From Candidatus Cloacimonadales bacterium (GTDB taxonomy: Bacteria; Cloacimonadota; Cloacimonadia; Cloacimonadales; JAFGVF01), in contig OY762964.1 in the NCBI GenBank assembly GCA_963667035.1, positions 160,001 through 224,000 on the forward strand: a DNA stretch of 64,000 nucleotides, read 5' to 3'. The notes under the pieces were generated by a model. It searched no databases. It saw nothing but the letters and a program-made list of their open reading frames with translations, and was not told the origin of the DNA. The position numbers were made by a program, and so were the translations under genes. The stretch's first letter is position 1, and the number at the start of each line of letters is the position of its first letter. Positions 6,749 through 44,069 of the stretch are shown piece by piece.

Positions 6749-8419
<1,671 letters not shown>

Positions 8420-8443
8420 TAGAATATCATTGCAATATATTGA

Positions 8444-8474
8444 AGGGTTTACCAATATTGGTAAACCCTCTTTT
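8444..8474 (+). terminator. Rho-independent terminator of groEL
   Basis: 26-bp palindrome agggtttaccaat/attggtaaaccct followed by a T-run. Confidence 0.8.
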
Positions 8475-8631
8475 ACTTTATACTTGCCATTTCCATGAAT
8501 AGAAATAAGCTATCACTATTAAGATGGCGAGTCACACATAAAAGTATCCACCCTAGGAAAGTTAAAGTTTTACCAAGAAAAATACTACGTAAACTATCCC
8601 TCCACCCACACGTTACTCCCATGAACAATAT

Positions 8632-8701
8632 TTACTCAATCCTTACTCATCTCTTACTCAACACTTACTCAAAACATGATTTTGGAGTTGGAAATTAGTA
8701 A
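8632..8701. repeat. 11-bp-period TTACTCA array with degenerate inverted arm
   Basis: TTACTCA at 8632, 8643, 8654, 8665; complementary-like GGAGTTG (8684) and TTAGTAA (8695). Confidence 0.6.
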
Positions 8702-9036
8702 GATGTCTGGGAGTGTTATATCTCAATTCTGTCTATGTTGCTCAAGTGCATAACGGGAGAAGGGAGTAAAAAAGAAAAGTGTGTAAACCTTAATATGCGA
8801 TTAAGCATATAATAGCTTTAATGCATATTTTGAGTGTTTTTTATACTGATTATGCTATATAATCAAGCTATATATGCATGTTGATACATTCTTTATGGGG
8901 AGACTAAATTAAAAAAGTATTATTTGACAATATAAATCCTGATAGAACAAATAGAATTGTGGCGTTTATAAAAGTATCTAAAAATTCTAGTAAAATTCAT
9001 GGTATTATTGGTAGTTATTTTATAAAAGAGGTAAGT

Positions 9037-10323
9037 GTGAAAAAGAGATATTGGTTTTTATTTATAATCATGTTATATGAATCCCTTTGTTTCGGTCAGG
9101 AATACTTTGAAGAGTTGTTTAGTTCAGAGTCAAGAATAAAGGGATTTCAGGAAGACTCAACTGGAGTAATGTATCTTGCAACCCGTGATTGTTTATTTAA
9201 ATCAGTAGATAATGGTAGTTCATGGCAACAGATTTTTGATGAAGCGGGAGTTGAGACAATAGGTGTTAATTCTCTTGACTGTATCTATGCACTTTCATAT
9301 CCACCATTACTTAGTATGCATTATTCAATTGATCAAGGGCTTACCTGGAATGTAATGAATAGACCAACCGGCTATGATCTTGTTGATCTTTTTATAACAT
9401 CAGATGATACAATGTTTTTGACCGGTTGGGGCTGTATTTATAAATATGACAGTGATAATGAAGATTGGGTTCAGGTTTTAGCATGTACTTATGAAGAGAT
9501 TGTGACTTCGATTGTTAGTAATGAAAATAATGTTCTTTTTGCCAGTTCCACAAATTTTGAGGGCTCAGGAACTACAGGAGGAATATACCGATCTGATGAC
9601 CGGGGGGACACATGGGAGCATATCGGATTGGATTACTATTTTGTCCAAGACTTAACGATAAATTCAAATGGAGAGTTTTTTGCTTGTACTTCCGGGCATT
9701 CAACAACAGGTGATACAGTGATTATGCATTCAATAGATCAGGGAGAAACTTGGAATCAGTGTTTCAGTTATGCAAGCCAGATGTTTACTATCATAAACGA
9801 TTCAAATGATAATCTGTATGTTGGAACGGGAAATTATCCTATTAGTTGGGCAGGAGTTCAGTTCTCGCAAGATAATGGTCAAACTTGGAATCAGCTTCAG
9901 ACAAACCTGATACCCAATAATGCCCAGGTTGACTATCTCTACTGTGATTCCGATAATTACTTATATGCAATAGTTAACGGAGATTATCCTCCTTACACAT
10001 TATTGAAGAGTCTGGAACCGACAACGACTACAGTTATCGACGAAGATTTTGTGGCTCCTGTAAATCAAATTTCTAATTACCCAAACCCCTTTACAGACGA
10101 AACAACGATTGTTCTAAGACTTCCATCCAAGAGTATAAGAGAAGCAAAAGTCGAAATATTCAATGTGAGAGGGCAGAAGATTAGAGAAATACCCGTAGAG
10201 CAACAGGAAGTAAAATGGGACGGGAGAGATGATCAATGTCAAAAAGCCCCTTCAGGAGTCTATTTCTATAGAATAAAAACAGAAGATAGTATTTTGACAA
10301 AGAAATGTATTTTAATGAAGTAG
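9037..10323 (+). CDS. Secreted BNR/Asp-box beta-propeller protein with T9SS type-A/FlgD-like C-terminal domain (paralog 1)
   Basis: Repeated S.D.G.TW Asp-boxes; NYPNPFT...GVYFYRI...KKCILMK. Start reassigned to GTG 9037 after GAGG RBS, matching paralog 2 (ORF track starts at 8959). Confidence 0.85.
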   Translation: MKKRYWFLFIIMLYESLCFGQEYFEELFSSESRIKGFQEDSTGVMYLATRDCLFKSVDNGSSWQQIFDEAGVETIGVNSLDCIYALSYPPLLSMHYSIDQGLTWNVMNRPTGYDLVDLFITSDDTMFLTGWGCIYKYDSDNEDWVQVLACTYEEIVTSIVSNENNVLFASSTNFEGSGTTGGIYRSDDRGDTWEHIGLDYYFVQDLTINSNGEFFACTSGHSTTGDTVIMHSIDQGETWNQCFSYASQMFTIINDSNDNLYVGTGNYPISWAGVQFSQDNGQTWNQLQTNLIPNNAQVDYLYCDSDNYLYAIVNGDYPPYTLLKSLEPTTTTVIDEDFVAPVNQISNYPNPFTDETTIVLRLPSKSIREAKVEIFNVRGQKIREIPVEQQEVKWDGRDDQCQKAPSGVYFYRIKTEDSILTKKCILMK

Positions 10324-10590
10324 AAAACTGCAAGCATTCTATCAAGCTTTGATGGTTGCTACTCTCGGAGATACATAAACATAAGGTATCTATATAAGGT
10401 CTGCAAAAATGAATCTTTTAGATTGTACGGCTCTTTACTATGAAAGAAATTGTTAATAATGAAAAAAATAAAAAACATTTGACAATAAAAATCATAACTA
10501 ATTATATCTAATTGTGGCGTTTAAGAATGTATCTAAAAGTACTAGTAAAATTCATAGTATTATTGGTAGTTATTTTTTAAAGAGGTAAGT

Positions 10591-11868
10591 GTGAGCAAGA
10601 GACATTGGTTTTTATTTATGATACTGTTATGTGCATCCCTTTGTTTCGGTCAGGAACACTTTGAGGAGTTGTACTCTTCGGATTCAAGAATATATGATTT
10701 TGGAATAGACAATCTGGGGAATCTTTACTTAACAAATAATGGTGGTCTCCATCGTTCAACAGATAATGGGAATAGTTGGGAATTAATTTTTAATGATCTA
10801 CAACCTGTAAAAATTTGCTTTACTCCTACAAATGGTTTATACATGTATAATCTTTATAATTATTATTTTTCTCCTGATATACAAACTTGGGATATGATTT
10901 CTACTCTTAACCTTATTGGAACAAGAGATATATTCCTAGATTCACTAGGAAATCTATTCATTTACGGGTGGCGAGGTATTGCAAAATCAATAGATGGAGG
11001 TTGTTCATGGCAACAAACATTTTCTACAAACGTAGGAGAGGAATTCAATACTTTTATTGAGTCATCAGATGGCACATACTACGCCGGTTCTACAGCATAT
11101 GCTGCAGACACAGAGAACCCGGGAGGTTTTTACAGATCCTTCGATCAGGGAGATACATGGGAGAATATCGGATTGCCAAATTATTACATCCGATCTATAA
11201 CTGAAACATCCAACAACGAGTTGTTGGCCTGTACTTCCGGACATACAACAACAGGTGCAAGAGTGATTATGCATTCAACTGACCAGGGAGCAACCTGGAA
11301 TCAGTGTTTTAGTTATACCAGTCAGATGTTTACTATCATAAACGATTCTAATGATAATCTGTTTGTTGGAACGGGAAATTATCCTGTTAGTTGGGCAGGA
11401 GTTCAGTTCTCGCAAGATAATGGTCAAACTTGGAATCAGCTTCAGACAAACCTGATATCTAATAATGCCCAAGTTGATTATCTCTACTGCGATTCAGATA
11501 ACTATTTATATGCAATAGTTAACGGAGATTATCCTCCTTACACATTATTGAAAAGTCTGGAACCAACAACGACCACTGTTATCGAAGAAGATTTTGTAGT
11601 TCCTGTAAATCAGATTACTAATTTCCCAAACCCCTTTACAGACGAAACAACGATTGTTCTGGAATTTCCATCAAAAAGCGTACAAAGTGCAAAGTTAGAA
11701 ATATTTAATGTGAGAGGGCAGAAGATTAGAGAAATACCCGTAGAGCAACAGGAAGTAAAATGGGACGGAAGGGATAAAAGGGGCAATAAGGTTCCATCCG
11801 GTATTTATTCCTATAGAATACAAACGGAAGCCGGTATTTTAACAAAGAAATGTATATTAATGAAGTAA
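10591..11868 (+). CDS. Secreted BNR/Asp-box beta-propeller protein with T9SS type-A/FlgD-like C-terminal domain (paralog 2)
   Basis: Same architecture; C-terminal half near-identical to paralog 1. Confidence 0.85.
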   Translation: MSKRHWFLFMILLCASLCFGQEHFEELYSSDSRIYDFGIDNLGNLYLTNNGGLHRSTDNGNSWELIFNDLQPVKICFTPTNGLYMYNLYNYYFSPDIQTWDMISTLNLIGTRDIFLDSLGNLFIYGWRGIAKSIDGGCSWQQTFSTNVGEEFNTFIESSDGTYYAGSTAYAADTENPGGFYRSFDQGDTWENIGLPNYYIRSITETSNNELLACTSGHTTTGARVIMHSTDQGATWNQCFSYTSQMFTIINDSNDNLFVGTGNYPVSWAGVQFSQDNGQTWNQLQTNLISNNAQVDYLYCDSDNYLYAIVNGDYPPYTLLKSLEPTTTTVIEEDFVVPVNQITNFPNPFTDETTIVLEFPSKSVQSAKLEIFNVRGQKIREIPVEQQEVKWDGRDKRGNKVPSGIYSYRIQTEAGILTKKCILMK

Positions 11869-11969
11869 AATATTATGACTCTTTTAGAAAGAATTTTCTT
11901 GCTAATTACAAAACTGGATACTTTAAAGGGTTACCTCCCACTATCACTATTAAGACATCGGGAATAGAT

Positions 11970-12689
11970 ATGAAAACAACCTTTCTTATAATAGCACTAT
12001 TATGTTCTGCAATTCTTCCTGCTTTGGAAACTGCTAGAGATACTTTAAGCTTTAAAAAGTATGAATATGGGATAGATTCCCTTGTTTTCCCTCTGGCATT
12101 GATAACCTATGGAGTTGTTGGTATCGAAAGTGATGAACTTAAACTATATAATAGTGAGATTAAAGAAGAAGTAAATGAGCATATTGATGAAAAACTTACT
12201 ATTGACGATTTCACTCAATACTTACCATTTACGGCTGTATATGCATTTAATGCTTTCGGAGTAAAAGGGAAGAACACTTTGCGTGATGAGACTCTAATCT
12301 TAGGAACAGCTTATGGATTAATGGCAGTGTCGGTTCTCAGTCTAAAAAAGATAACAGGAGTTGAGAGACCTGACGGTTCAACTAACAATTCATTTCCTTC
12401 CGGACATACTGCAACCGCTTTTATGGGTGCGGAGTTTCTCTATCAAGAGTATAAACATAAATCTATCTGGTATGGGGCAATAGGGTATGCTATTGCTTCA
12501 GGTACCGGAGCTTTCAGAATGTATAATGACAGACATTGGTTCACGGATGTTGTTGCGGGAGCAGGCTTTGGTATTCTCAGCACAAAACTATCTTATATGA
12601 TTTACGAAAGGATTGAAAAAAAGAAACTCCAAACTAAGGTTACGCCATATTACGAAGATAAGAAATTCGGATTTGTGATTGCTTTCTAA
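11970..12689 (+). CDS. PAP2 superfamily phosphatase
   Basis: K...ERPD, SFPSGHT, and R.....HWFTDVVAG motifs. Start set at ATG 11970; the ORF-track extension is IS-end sequence. Confidence 0.88.
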   Translation: MKTTFLIIALLCSAILPALETARDTLSFKKYEYGIDSLVFPLALITYGVVGIESDELKLYNSEIKEEVNEHIDEKLTIDDFTQYLPFTAVYAFNAFGVKGKNTLRDETLILGTAYGLMAVSVLSLKKITGVERPDGSTNNSFPSGHTATAFMGAEFLYQEYKHKSIWYGAIGYAIASGTGAFRMYNDRHWFTDVVAGAGFGILSTKLSYMIYERIEKKKLQTKVTPYYEDKKFGFVIAF

Positions 12690-12695
12690 ACTGAA

Positions 12696-13349
12696 TTATC
12701 CTAAGGTATATATCCCTAAGTAATTATCTTGATTAGTATCTACCAAGATAAACTCTTTCTTTAGGATAAATCCATTCTCTAGCATCAATTCTTTTAATTC
12801 TTTTGGAGTAGTAAAGTATCTGGTAGAAACTATTCTATCTTCGAATTTGACTTCCATGCATTTTGTCTCTTGATTGTAAGGGACATCACTGTTCTTTGGA
12901 GGATTACACATTGTGTTAATCCAAATTTCACCATTATTCTGTAGAATAGCAGATAGCTTCTTAATAACTTTAGTTCTGTCTTTACCAATTATACAGTGCA
13001 GAAAGAAACTGTCGATAATCAGTTCGTACTTTTCTTTTCCCTGACCTTCCGATACAATATTCTTGCAAATGAATTTTGCTTCAACATTCAAATCCTTTGC
13101 TCTCTTTTGAGCTGTTTCAATTGAGGAGGGAGCAATATCAATTCCAACATACTCTTTGCATAGCCGAGAGAAAGAAAACAGATAGGGTGATGTTCCGCAC
13201 CCCAATTCTAAAAGTTTATCGCATTTAGTGAAAGCAGTATTTTCTAAAAACCAACCCCAGTCATTCTGAAACTGATAATCTTCAGTTTGCCAATTTTACC
13301 CATTTTTATACTTTAATTCGTGGAGCTCATAATTAGTCTTTTCTACCAT
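12696..13349 (-). pseudogene. Class I SAM-dependent methyltransferase with in-frame TAA at codon 18
   Basis: RBS GAGG + ATG 13349 reads MVEKTNYELHELKYKNG*NWQTED...LLELGCGTS in one frame; stop at 13296-13298; motifs LELGCG and VGIDIAPS. Confidence 0.72.
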
Positions 13350-42612: not shown

Positions 42613-44001
42613 TGGCGAGTGACCCTTAAAAGTATCCACCCTAGGGAGGTCAAAGTTTTACCAAGAAAAATACTACGTAAACTACATGATATAATATCAT
42701 CAATAGAGACCGGTGTCTTTATGGGTTATATACTTGATAAAAATGCAGTTAATCAGTTAAAGGAATATTTTAATGAATTGGATTATTTCTAGAGAAATGC
42801 AGAGTAAATGTTTCATCCACGCAATGAGCGTAGCGAATGGAGGGGATGAAACATTCGCCTTGAATACTTGGATTATATATATCCTACAAAAAAAGAGTGC
42901 CAGCAATCTAAGAATCAGATATACTGACACTTATGTCATACTTAGAGATGAGATTACTCAGTAAAGAATTTAAGTCAAGAACTCTTTTACGGTATCAGAT
43001 GTATACTCTTTCAATGCAGCATGGCATATCTGAAACAGCTAGGATGTTAGGCACAACCAGAAAGACTGTTCGTCTCTGGAGAAATAGGTATCTTGAGCTT
43101 GGAGAGGCAGGTCTCGAGAATAAGTCCAGGGTTGGTCAGGAACATCCTCTGAAGATGCCAAAAGATATTGAAGATGCTATCATCAAAGAACGTAAAGATC
43201 GTGGCAATCCCGGAGCTCGCACTATAGTAAATAATCTGAAACTGCATTACTCAGCAAAGACCGTTCATAAGGTATTAAAGAGACATAAGCTTGTTCTGAA
43301 AAGAAAAACAAGATACAAGAAAAAGAAAGATATGTCAGCTGTAAGAGCACACTATAAGCCTATGCAGAAACTTCAGCTCGATGTTAAATATCTAAATGAT
43401 ATTGCTAAACAGAGTAGAGCATATGAGTCCGGTGCAATACCTATGTTTCAGATTACTGCCAGAGATTACAAGACAGGAATGGTATTTCTAGGCTTTACAA
43501 ACTATAAAGATGATCTCTCAACTGCCATTTTTGCGGATTACGTAATTGAATACCTAAAAGGGTTACATTGCTCTCCTAATGATATTACTTTCCAAACAGA
43601 TAACGGTACTGAATTTATTGAACCTCTTCATAGTAGAGTCACAATCTTTGAAGAAATCTTAAACAAGCATGGAGTAACTCATGTTCGTATACCTCCAAAA
43701 TCTCCAACATTCAACAGTGATGTAGAAAGCTTTCACAACACCATAGAACAAGAATTATATGATTATGAAGAGTTTAGAGACATTATATCTTTCATTAGTA
43801 AAGTCTTCATATATCAGACTTACTACAACCATATTCGTAAAATCAGGACTAGAGGTAACAAGGCCCCCGTTGAGTTAGTCGCAGAATATGGACTTAAGGC
43901 TAAAACTGCTGATTTATGCTTTATCCCCATATTCTGCGACTCTTTTAGAAAGAATTTTCTTGCTAACTACAAAACTGGATACTTTAAAGGGTTACCTCCC
44001 A
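42613..44001 (+). mobile_element. IS481/IS1202-like insertion sequence (about 1.39 kb, TGG...CCA ends)
   Basis: IRL TGGCGAGTGACCCTTAAAAGTATCCA versus reverse complement of IRR TGGGAGGTAACCCTTTAAAGTATCCA; no flanking duplication at this copy. Confidence 0.85.
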
Positions 44002-44069
44002 GCAAATACTTTAGAGTATTTAAACAGATAGAAAGCTATCTCAAGAAAAGAAAATTAAACTTGAAGTAA
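42933..44069 (+). CDS. IS481-like DDE transposase (HTH plus integrase core); reads through the right end
   Basis: ISETARMLGTTRKTVRLWRNRY HTH; LQLDVKY, FQTDNGTEF, NSDVESFHNT (D-D-E); YYNHIR. Confidence 0.9.
   Translation: MSYLEMRLLSKEFKSRTLLRYQMYTLSMQHGISETARMLGTTRKTVRLWRNRYLELGEAGLENKSRVGQEHPLKMPKDIEDAIIKERKDRGNPGARTIVNNLKLHYSAKTVHKVLKRHKLVLKRKTRYKKKKDMSAVRAHYKPMQKLQLDVKYLNDIAKQSRAYESGAIPMFQITARDYKTGMVFLGFTNYKDDLSTAIFADYVIEYLKGLHCSPNDITFQTDNGTEFIEPLHSRVTIFEEILNKHGVTHVRIPPKSPTFNSDVESFHNTIEQELYDYEEFRDIISFISKVFIYQTYYNHIRKIRTRGNKAPVELVAEYGLKAKTADLCFIPIFCDSFRKNFLANYKTGYFKGLPPSKYFRVFKQIESYLKKRKLNLK

Follow-up and report, generated by a model that had tools for sequence, protein, structure and literature searches.

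Structure of the locus

The window, by which we mean the whole stretch of 64,000 nucleotides that was analysed, contains at 8525–11940 a 3,416-bp cassette that lies between the groEL terminator and the start of a PAP2-family gene. groEL itself occupies 6779–8419, and a terminator-like hairpin follows on the plus strand at 8444–8469, 41 bp upstream of the target site. On the other side, the PAP2-family gene is read from the plus strand at 11970–12689. Its ATG is located 15 bp past the right copy of the duplication; thus, the cassette occupies the PAP2 upstream region. Both termini are directly abutted by copies of CTATCACTATTAAGA, to which no strand is assigned, at 8510–8524 on the left and at 11941–11955 on the right, and the two copies form a 100% match (15/15). 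The probability of meeting a 15-mer repeat exactly at both outer termini is approximately 4^-15, and chance is excluded.

The cassette begins and ends with insertion sequence (IS) DNA. On the plus strand, 8525–8596 corresponds to IS positions 1–72, with the terminal inverted repeat at 8525–8550, and agrees with 42613–42684 of the IS in the same window at 66 of 72 bases. The right end (plus strand, 11877–11940) corresponds to IS positions 1326–1389 and includes the last residues of the transposase frame; it agrees with 43938–44001 at 63 of 64 bases and with five of the six full genomic IS copies at all 64. The terminal 26 bp are imperfect inverted repeats, matching at 19/26 positions in the cassette and at 21/26 in the full IS. 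These base counts bear out the preliminary description, made from the window alone, which had proposed IS-derived, imperfectly inverted ends flanked by a perfect 15-bp direct repeat. The left end of the cassette shows 5–6 changes in 72 bp and the right end none in 64. Two of the left-end changes, which turn ACCCTT into ACACAT, hit a core that is otherwise invariant, shared by the two ends of all full copies and by the related IS found in other assemblies. The changed left end beside the intact right end means that the two are of unequal age, and the left end may be impaired.

The genome assembly is a single 3.1-Mb contig, and unitigs span the left junction (7605–8593) and the right junction (11913–12900) with 0 differences. 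The unitigs come from three runs of one sample, which is probably the source and hence does not give independent support.

Interior of the cassette

The left end is followed by a dispersed non-coding repeat, here called X, on the plus strand at 8597–8835, with a core at 8597–8760 and a variable tail reaching to about 8835. X measures 240 bp and has about six further copies in the genome; an Rfam search of 8300–12200, X included, gave no match at E ≤ 0.1. The junction between IS position 72 and X recurs at a decayed relic at genome position 1422367. Next to X lies the upstream region of the first cargo gene (plus strand, 8836–8958). The segment 8836–9138 is 97% identical to genome positions 1091451–1091149 on the minus strand, which hold the upstream region and the 5′ part of a paralogous first gene.

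Cargo gene 1 (plus strand, 8959–10323) encodes 454 amino acids counted from the GTG at 8959, with a BNR/Asp-box propeller and a T9SS type A C-terminal sorting domain (CTD). Its N-terminus contains a hydrophobic signal-like segment, and the true start may lie further inward. Cargo gene 2 (plus strand, 10591–11868) encodes 425 amino acids and is a paralogue with the same domains; the two proteins share about 61% amino-acid identity. The profile matches in the cargo genes are BNR/Asp-box, Sortilin-Vps10 and Por_Secre_tail, so the two paralogous propeller/CTD genes of the preliminary description are confirmed by both reading frames and domains. A sequence search of the PDB with cargo gene 2 found no match at E ≤ 0.01, and P0123, the one close homologue that the cargo has outside this genome, is 73% identical and is encoded on a contig of 6.5 kb. 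Within the genome, a paralogous gene pair at 1.088–1.091 Mb shows 85–97% nucleotide identity to the cargo. Over their full length, the two cargo genes match the corresponding genes of that pair at 85% and 91%, against 97% for 8836–9138, a pattern of mosaic exchange between the four paralogues of the genome.

The cassette holds no transposase gene, in agreement with the transposase-free interior described earlier; a transposase search yields only a 25-residue remnant (residues 334–358) at 11871–11945. The stop codon of cargo gene 2 is at 11866–11868 and the similarity to the IS starts at 11877, and the 8-bp gap between them is as had been reported. Comparison with the paralogous locus refines this junction (plus strand, 11869–11882, the 8-bp spacer plus GACTCT). 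The cargo-derived sequence continues to 11882, so the joint between cargo and IS must fall inside the 6-bp overlap GACTCT at 11877–11882. GACTCT lies in a microhomology that the IS end shares with the left arm of a terminator hairpin at the paralogous locus; the right arm of that hairpin is lost in the cassette.

The parent IS

A full copy of the parent IS, 1389 bp in length and with no flanking duplication, is found in the window on the plus strand at 42613–44001. Its transposase reading frame (plus strand, 42933–44069) encodes helix–turn–helix (HTH) domains and an rve/DDE core; the profile matches are HTH_28/HTH_32 and rve_3, and the catalytic motifs, read by eye, are D150, D223 and E265. 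The frame is open through the right IS end; therefore, 356 codons lie within the IS and the stop codon is supplied by flanking DNA. The genome contains six full copies, all with open transposase frames of 359–378 amino acids including the read-out into the flank. Perfect 15-bp duplications, CCTGCAGGATGCCGG, CCACCCTTTTATGTA and CTCTCTATTAAGTTT, flank three of the six, one of which occupies genome positions 1043353–1044741. A related IS in other assemblies, with 67% nucleotide identity and the same terminal 26 bp, has a 15-bp duplication at three distinct contig-end pairs, and the termini are TGG...CCA in this IS as in all of the full copies. A sequence search of the PDB with the transposase gave no match at E ≤ 0.01. 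For a transposase relative (42% identity, three copies), recognizable duplications were found at 0/3 copies, a result that is uninformative.

Outside the full copies, the genome holds 14 left-end and five right-end pieces of the IS, and duplication-less fragments are frequent. Internally deleted IS loci are present at 233022, 471506, 1619817, 2470059, 2709712, 2734715 and 2912864, and the deletion at 2470059 also ends at IS position 1326/1327. No duplication was found around the other deletion derivatives in the genome; thus, movement of derivatives in trans is not seen there.

Regarding family placement, the best NCBIfam model for the transposase is IS481 (NF033577), with 144.5 bits and E = 4.5e-42 over profile positions 2–283 of 284, against a curated cut-off of 224. 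The parent IS resembles the IS481 family in its one-frame transposase with HTH and DDE (rve) domains, its length of about 1.4 kb and its 15-bp duplication. It differs in its termini, TGG...CCA compared with the TGT...ACA given for IS481, IS3 and IS1202, and in a transposase frame that runs out through the right end. PMC10045372 gives a 6-bp duplication for most IS481 members, about 15 bp for 'not a few', and a range of 2–15 bp, within which the parent IS falls. The ISTde1 subgroup of IS1202 has transposases of 394–507 amino acids and a Q seventh after the catalytic E (PMC10132070). The parent IS is similar to this subgroup in duplication length (15–17 bp there, 15 bp here) and in its imperfect terminal repeats of about 24–26 bp. 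However, its transposase has 356 codons within the IS, its termini are not TGT, and the motif DVE265-SFHNTIE has E at +7 and Q at +8 in a by-eye alignment made without a profile. The ISNCY_2 model scores only 24 bits against the parent transposase. Membership of IS1202 is rejected on this score together with transposase length, termini and residue +7, and the parent IS is IS481-like. Long duplications are recorded in PMC10045372 for relatives of IS481 and of IS1202; the IS1202 label does not fit the parent IS.

Search for further cassettes and for an empty site

The preliminary description had suggested pairing the IS ends throughout the genome. In an all-against-all comparison of the flanks of 21 left and 12 right ends, from which the truncated left fragment at 2912864 was omitted as its terminus is missing, four perfect 15-bp pairs emerged, namely the cassette and three full copies. 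One further pair, with four mismatches, joins unrelated ends. Among these 21 left and 12 right ends there is neither a second copy of the cassette nor any other cargo bounded by a duplication. When the outer 15-bp flank of 15 left ends was sought within 60 kb, allowing up to two mismatches, a repeat preceded by a right end was found only at the cassette. Around 16 left-type ends, 30 kb was scanned for words resembling the right terminus followed by the flank (up to five mismatches), which gave three weak chance rows, none of them real.

Elsewhere, the exact 26-bp end pattern occurs at four loci in one Cloacimonadota metagenome-assembled genome and at 21 metagenome loci, nearly all of them contig ends of a related IS, and none of these 25 loci from other assemblies shows cargo between the ends. 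Another metagenome contains a transposase-less element of 513 bp (L041, 242–754) that has these terminal repeats and is flanked by an imperfect repeat, so small derivatives of this IS type exist elsewhere. Traces of the parent IS were found in none of 11 genomes of the same family. These 11 IS-free genomes have 45–73 CTD matches each, compared with 54 here. The idea, put forward with the preliminary description, that such elements spread the many CTD-bearing genes of the lineage is not supported as a general route: the cassette is a one-off, and IS-free relatives have about as many CTD matches. The cassette may be a one-off decayed composite. Our view of how these genes spread is unchanged by one event in one genome.

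The empty site that was also to be looked for was not found. In a DNA search of 41 genomes, groEL was present in 40 and PAP2 beside groEL in none. The nearest genome keeps the lipocalin–groEL order, but synteny stops at groEL, with unrelated genes beyond and the PAP2 orthologue absent. PAP2 protein matches in three of five close genomes have 35–40% identity and are located elsewhere. Contigs of the three runs of the one sample show no joint across the cassette, and a fourth run bearing the same species label gave nothing; neither result is evidence of absence.

Origin and probable movement of the cassette

The element belongs to the mobile insertion cassettes, a class already known, of which it represents a single clean example. 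Since the duplication matches the 15-bp length seen at full copies and at the related IS, the whole unit was very probably inserted by one transposition event of this transposase type. The origin of the parts can be traced. Repeat X had already become attached to the left end, at IS position 72, in an older ancestor, because the same junction survives at 1422367. The cargo, a paralogue of the pair at 1.088–1.091 Mb, was linked to IS position 1326 through illegitimate recombination at GACTCT, with the joint lying within the terminator of the paralogous gene pair. The whole unit transposed into the interval that separates the groEL terminator from the start of PAP2, generating the 15-bp duplication. 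In the course of events that we favour, it was the transposase-less form that moved, and we infer that one of the six full copies resident in the genome, all with open transposase frames, may have mobilized it in trans. We advance this in-trans step tentatively, at slightly less than an even chance. The account taken as a whole, which includes that step, is likewise a little short of even. All of the data are explained just as well if a larger unit inserted together with its transposase and the deletion then took place at the site.

The alternative that survives best follows from this last point. A larger autonomous unit, made up of the old left-end/X relic, the gene pair together with its terminator, and one complete IS copy that contributed its own right end as the outer end, would have transposed and made the duplication; a later deletion between the GACTCT of the terminator and the GACTCT at IS position 1326 would have removed the left end of that IS and the transposase gene, and the present form would never have moved. 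The junction between cargo and right end is indeed a joint of the microhomology deletion type, internal IS deletions are common in the genome (seven loci), and the endpoint at 2470059, at IS position 1326/1327, hints at a deletion hot spot. The identity of the right end to current full copies beside a diverged left end is what would be expected if a recent full IS had supplied the right end, and the genome has no second transposase-less copy. However, the deletion must by chance have halted just inside a still complete right end, and an intermediate with cargo plus a full IS is found nowhere in the genome; the sequence reads the same whether the deletion came after movement or before it. We judge the chance of this course to be appreciably below even.

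It is unlikely that an ordinary IS inserted, made the duplication and later, through recombination or gene conversion with a left-end/X/cargo stretch at another place, acquired X and the gene pair in exchange for its positions 73–1325. Such a swap would draw on material that does exist elsewhere in the genome, where both the left-end/X unit (1422367) and a paralogous gene pair are present and the four paralogues have undergone mosaic exchange. It would nevertheless need a double exchange for which diverged homology of just 72 bp was available at one joint and 6 bp at the second, and nowhere in the genome do left end, X and cargo stand in this order to serve as a template; the difference of the left end from all full copies would also be left unexplained. 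Finally, the view that there is no mobile unit, and that the direct repeat arose by chance next to two unrelated pieces of IS or the assembly went wrong at repeats, is very improbable: duplication-less fragments are frequent (14 left-end and five right-end pieces) and the reads come from one sample, probably the source, but the 15/15 repeat abuts the termini exactly and has the length seen at three of six full copies, and both junctions are bridged by unitigs with 0 differences in a genome of one 3.1-Mb contig.

The favoured account, of a mobile insertion cassette inserted as a unit, could be extended to a reading in which the short ends (no more than 72 bp and 64 bp) still work as a vehicle for resident transposase copies acting in trans. 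The IS family would then repeatedly mobilize non-transposase modules in Cloacimonadota, the lineage-specific pair of T9SS substrates being one case and the leader-plus-array units of three orphan CRISPR mini-arrays possibly another. We consider this extension improbable.

Comparison with known systems

Mobile insertion cassettes (MICs) have IS inverted repeats on the outside and one or more passenger genes but no transposase, and mobilization in trans is established for MIC231 with IS231A, according to PMC3913671. The cassette shares with these elements its IS inverted-repeat ends, the lack of a transposase, a duplication of the length made by its parent and passengers unrelated to transposition. 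MIC231 (Bacillus cereus, from IS231A) and the qnrD and qnrS2 mic elements resemble the cassette in having IS inverted repeats, passengers, no transposase, a target duplication and a cognate IS in the genome. The cassette differs from MIC231 in its parent, which is IS481-like with a 15-bp duplication, whereas that of MIC231 belongs to the IS4 family. It also differs in its cargo of two T9SS-sorted BNR-propeller genes and a dispersed repeat, and in its Cloacimonadota-type host.

In transporter IS (tIS) such as ISKpn21, as presented in bioRxiv 10.1101/2022.12.17.520857, IS ends also move passenger genes, but tIS retains its transposase and the cassette has only 72 + 64 bp of IS. In composite transposons the cargo lies between two complete IS copies, in contrast to the 72 bp and 64 bp of IS here. 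With no whole IS and no transposase, the cassette in its present state is neither of these, although either may have been its ancestor, as in the reading in which a larger unit lost its transposase in place. A miniature element of the MITE kind is likewise rejected, as the cassette is 3,416 bp long with two intact genes and is not short and non-coding.

In an uncultured phylum that has been little studied, the cassette documents how such an element is built: a dispersed repeat and a captured pair of paralogues follow an old IS end and are joined to the other IS end at a microhomology. The IS types known to yield such cassettes thereby gain an IS481-like member that makes a 15-bp duplication, and the ends kept in this cassette are bounded at 72 bp for the left one and 64 bp for the right one. 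As a separate observation on the IS left end, a 161-bp piece of it is present at the leader of each of three orphan CRISPR mini-arrays.

Termini, duplication and insertion site

The genome carrying the window is a single contig of 3.10 Mb, in which the window occupies positions 160001–224000. The cassette (8525–11940) is bounded by two ends of a 1389-bp IS481-like insertion sequence, the parent IS, whose full copy in the window lies at 42613–44001. Direct comparison confirmed the borders claimed in the preliminary description: the left end (8525–8596) matches the IS at 42613–42684 in 66 of 72 bases, the right end (11877–11940) matches 43938–44001 in 63 of 64, and the 15-bp direct repeat CTATCACTATTAAGA is present at 8510–8524 and 11941–11955, immediately outside both termini. 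The ends had rightly been called imperfect inverted repeats, the outer 26 bp pairing at 19/26 positions in the cassette and 21/26 in the full IS, and the interior is indeed transposase-free, its sole transposase trace being a remnant of 25 residues for which the right end codes. This remnant continues in frame into the PAP2 ORF downstream (11850–12689, 279 aa). Since a perfect duplication of family-typical length flanks the outer termini, we infer that one transposition event inserted all of 8525–11940 as a unit. The site is 41 bp 3′ of the groEL terminator hairpin and 15–29 bp 5′ of the PAP2 start codon.

The right end is identical (64/64) to five full copies of the IS. Against each of the full copies, the left end has 5–6 changes in 72 positions, two of them in the ACCCTT core, which does not vary at either end of any full copy or of the metagenomic relative. 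Judging from their sequences, the two ends differ in age.

The search for an empty site proposed in the preliminary description found none in close genomes or in read data: of four sequencing runs compared, the three in which the stretch is present come from one sample, probably the source, and no contig in them skips the cassette. The closest genome (groEL 84% nucleotide identity) keeps the lipocalin–groEL order followed by unrelated genes, and PAP2 has only 35–40% matches, elsewhere in the genome, in three of five close genomes.

The parent IS and its targets

With the 1389-bp IS as BLAST query, the whole genome yields six full copies (98.9–100% identity), plus a right-hand fragment of 527 bp. 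The proposed whole-genome BLAST of both ends gave 21 matches for the 72-bp left query and 12 for the 64-bp right query; 14 left-end and five right-end pieces lie outside the full copies and the cassette. Pairing the 21 left with the 12 right flanks produced no second cassette, perfect 15-bp pairs being confined to the cassette and three of the six full copies. One other full copy has a partial flank match of 10–11 nt and two have none, the window's own copy among them. Cargo was found between ends in 0 of 25 loci from other assemblies.

The transposase of the window's copy (ORF 42933–44069, 378 aa) combines HTH domains with an rve core, with DDE-type motifs assigned by eye to D150, D223 and E265. 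Its best curated model is IS481, at 144.5 bits over the whole profile against a cut-off of 224. Within the IS the frame contains no stop codon and continues past the right end, so that the stops lie in the flanks and differ per copy (359–378 aa). Three IS1202 features are lacking, namely the transposase length, termini of the TGT type and a Q at position +7 counted from the catalytic E, and the parent IS is therefore filed as IS481-like.

The parent IS was found in none of 11 other same-family genomes; across the order, 5 of 40 genomes have distant relatives (≤42% identity). A scan for the exact 26-bp ends with one genome per species returned one further genome, a MAG labelled Cloacimonadota. 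In metagenomes, 21 loci carry a related IS with 67% nucleotide identity and the same terminal 26 bp; matching its left-end-terminated against its right-end-terminated contigs gave three distinct perfect 15-bp flank pairs. Given the 15-bp duplications of both the parent and the related IS, 15 bp is the length made by this transposase type. This length agrees with published ranges: passages of PMC10045372 state that IS481 members mostly make 6-bp duplications and 'not a few' of ∼15 bp, and the related IS1202 group is described in parts of three sources as making duplications of 5–6, 15–17 or 24–29 bp (PMC10045372; bioRxiv 10.1101/2022.12.17.520857; PMC10132070). A metagenome contig from another habitat (L041, 242–754) contains a 513-bp non-coding, transposase-less element. 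One of its ends is the left terminus of this IS type and the opposite end a diverged version of it in inverted orientation, with an imperfect repeat (GAGATGTTAAA) close to each flank. The element resembles a MITE-like derivative of the related IS.

We compared seven duplications: cassette 8510–8524, genome 1043338, 1708127 and 2957854, and the loci L028/L051, L033/L029 and L038/L049 of other assemblies. On the IS strand the first base is C in 7/7 and the first two are CT in 5/7, with no matching bias at the last position, and the targets of the cassette and of the full copy at genome 2956465 have CTATTAAG in common. The pattern looks like an asymmetric target preference. A dispersed repeat of ∼250–300 bp adjoins many IS ends in either orientation (e.g. 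genome 1757391–1757840 in stretch L054, 1044764–1045018 and 930614–930789). At five solo left ends it is on the outer side, and at one full and one partial copy it is found just beyond the right end. For the full copy at 1043353, the duplicated sequence (CCTGCAGGATGCCGG) is nearly the reverse complement of the left-end flank at 1785716 (CCGGCATCCTGCCGG), which suggests a preferred IS target inside this repeat. The repeat has a weak Rfam Acido-Lenti-1 match (L054 464–510, 29.5 bits against a gathering score of 37). Separately, genome 97042 (+) and 124589 (−) carry inward-facing termini 27.5 kb apart, which share their first 14 bp with the parent IS (TGGCGAGTCA.CCTGAGAATAAT...) and then diverge; they may bound a different, larger element.

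Cargo genes and inner joints

The two ORFs between the ends encode 454 and 425 aa with ∼61% mutual identity, and each of them matches BNR/Asp-box, Sortilin-Vps10 and Por_Secre_tail, a T9SS sorting domain. A paralogous gene pair on the minus strand (genome 1088299–1091451) shows 85–97% nucleotide identity to them, in a mosaic relation with the gene order swapped. Over 8836–9138, which comprises the upstream region of gene 1 and the 5′ part of the gene itself, identity to the corresponding stretch of the paralogous first gene is 97%. The body of gene 1 agrees at 91% with the paralogous second gene, and gene 2 at 85% with the first. Close cargo homologues are absent from the relatives searched (best 28–29% identity over the propeller), and a large protein collection holds one foreign homologue at 73% identity, the remainder at ≤33%. 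The paralogous pair (within 1086000–1094000, stretch L052) is itself bordered by mobile-element debris, with an ORF carrying a DUF772 transposase domain downstream (E 2e-5) and a 117-aa ORF upstream that is transposase-fragment-like by eye, without a Pfam match. In its second gene, an insertion of ∼136 bp takes the place of the final sorting-domain strand, and the original 3′ end survives as a remnant.

The right joint was examined by comparing three sequences. Past the stop codon, the paralogous locus has the hairpin 'aatattatGACTCTgtagaaaagagtcat', the IS reads 'ctgcGACTCTtttagaaag' from position 1326 on, and the cassette reads 'aatattatGACTCTtttagaaag' across the joint. As these overlap by 6 bp, the joint is an illegitimate recombination in 6 bp of microhomology, with loss of the terminator's right arm. 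PAP2 may now rely on read-through from gene 2, the cargo terminator being halved. At the left joint, IS position 72 is fused to X (8597–8835), a dispersed non-coding repeat. The same joint recurs at genome 1422367 beside a decayed left end that has neither partner nor duplication, and thus the fusion predates the cassette. X has about six further copies in varied contexts (1381348, 2328203, 1183037, 2470036, 1154547 and 1422439), with neighbouring genes that follow no consistent pattern, and gave no match in Rfam; it is a mosaic that contains short inverted words (TTACTCCC...GGGAGTAA) and has one or the other of two tails. It may be a MITE, a promoter module or an RNA.

Origin and classification of the cassette

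We slightly favour, tentatively, an order in which the terminator/IS-1326 deletion came first and one of the six resident copies would then have moved the unit in trans. Both ends are kept and look functional, and the 513-bp transposase-less element with the same terminal repeats in another metagenome also argues for this order. In-trans mobilisation is established for MIC231 with IS231A, according to part of PMC3913671. The main rival, which we regard as possible, is that the cargo travelled together with the old left end and a complete IS, the deletion following in place. Internal deletions of the parent IS are common in this genome, and that at genome 2470059 likewise has an endpoint at IS 1326/1327. 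The sequence fits a transposase-bearing or a transposase-less unit at insertion alike. Replacement of the IS interior in place is unlikely. Chance or artefact is highly improbable; unitigs from the three runs of one sample, probably the source, bridge both junctions with 0 differences.

Five features define a mobile insertion cassette, and the sequence here shows four of them, all but in-trans movement. It is not a MITE, as it carries genes, nor a composite transposon, having no whole IS, nor a transporter IS, having no transposase. The class itself dates back to 1999 (Chen et al., as cited in a passage of PMC3913671); by full-text literature search, an IS481-like parent may be new for it. The earlier suggestion that such elements are a route for spreading the lineage's CTD genes is not supported: there is one event in one genome, and 11 same-family relatives without the IS have 45–73 CTD matches each versus 54 here. 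The cassette is a well-resolved example with a readable history.

IS-derived pieces at CRISPR-type mini-arrays

Three solo left ends share a 161-bp IS-derived piece consisting of the left terminus, ∼155 bp of the IS left part and then TACCTCCCA, without duplication (loci at genome 663177–663903 in stretch L055, 758788–759512 and 1785064–1785716). Each lies directly 5′ of a conserved leader-like region of ∼350 bp, which is followed by 3–4 CRISPR-type 38-bp repeats (GTT.TTTACC.ACTATCCATTAAATCAAGGATTGAAAC) with unique spacers. The repeats of these orphan mini-arrays score 32.2 bits against Rfam CRISPR-DR7, below the gathering score of 37. A fourth mini-array with two repeats is located at 1863004; at 1950170, a single repeat is next to a Cas1 gene (1948127–1948978).
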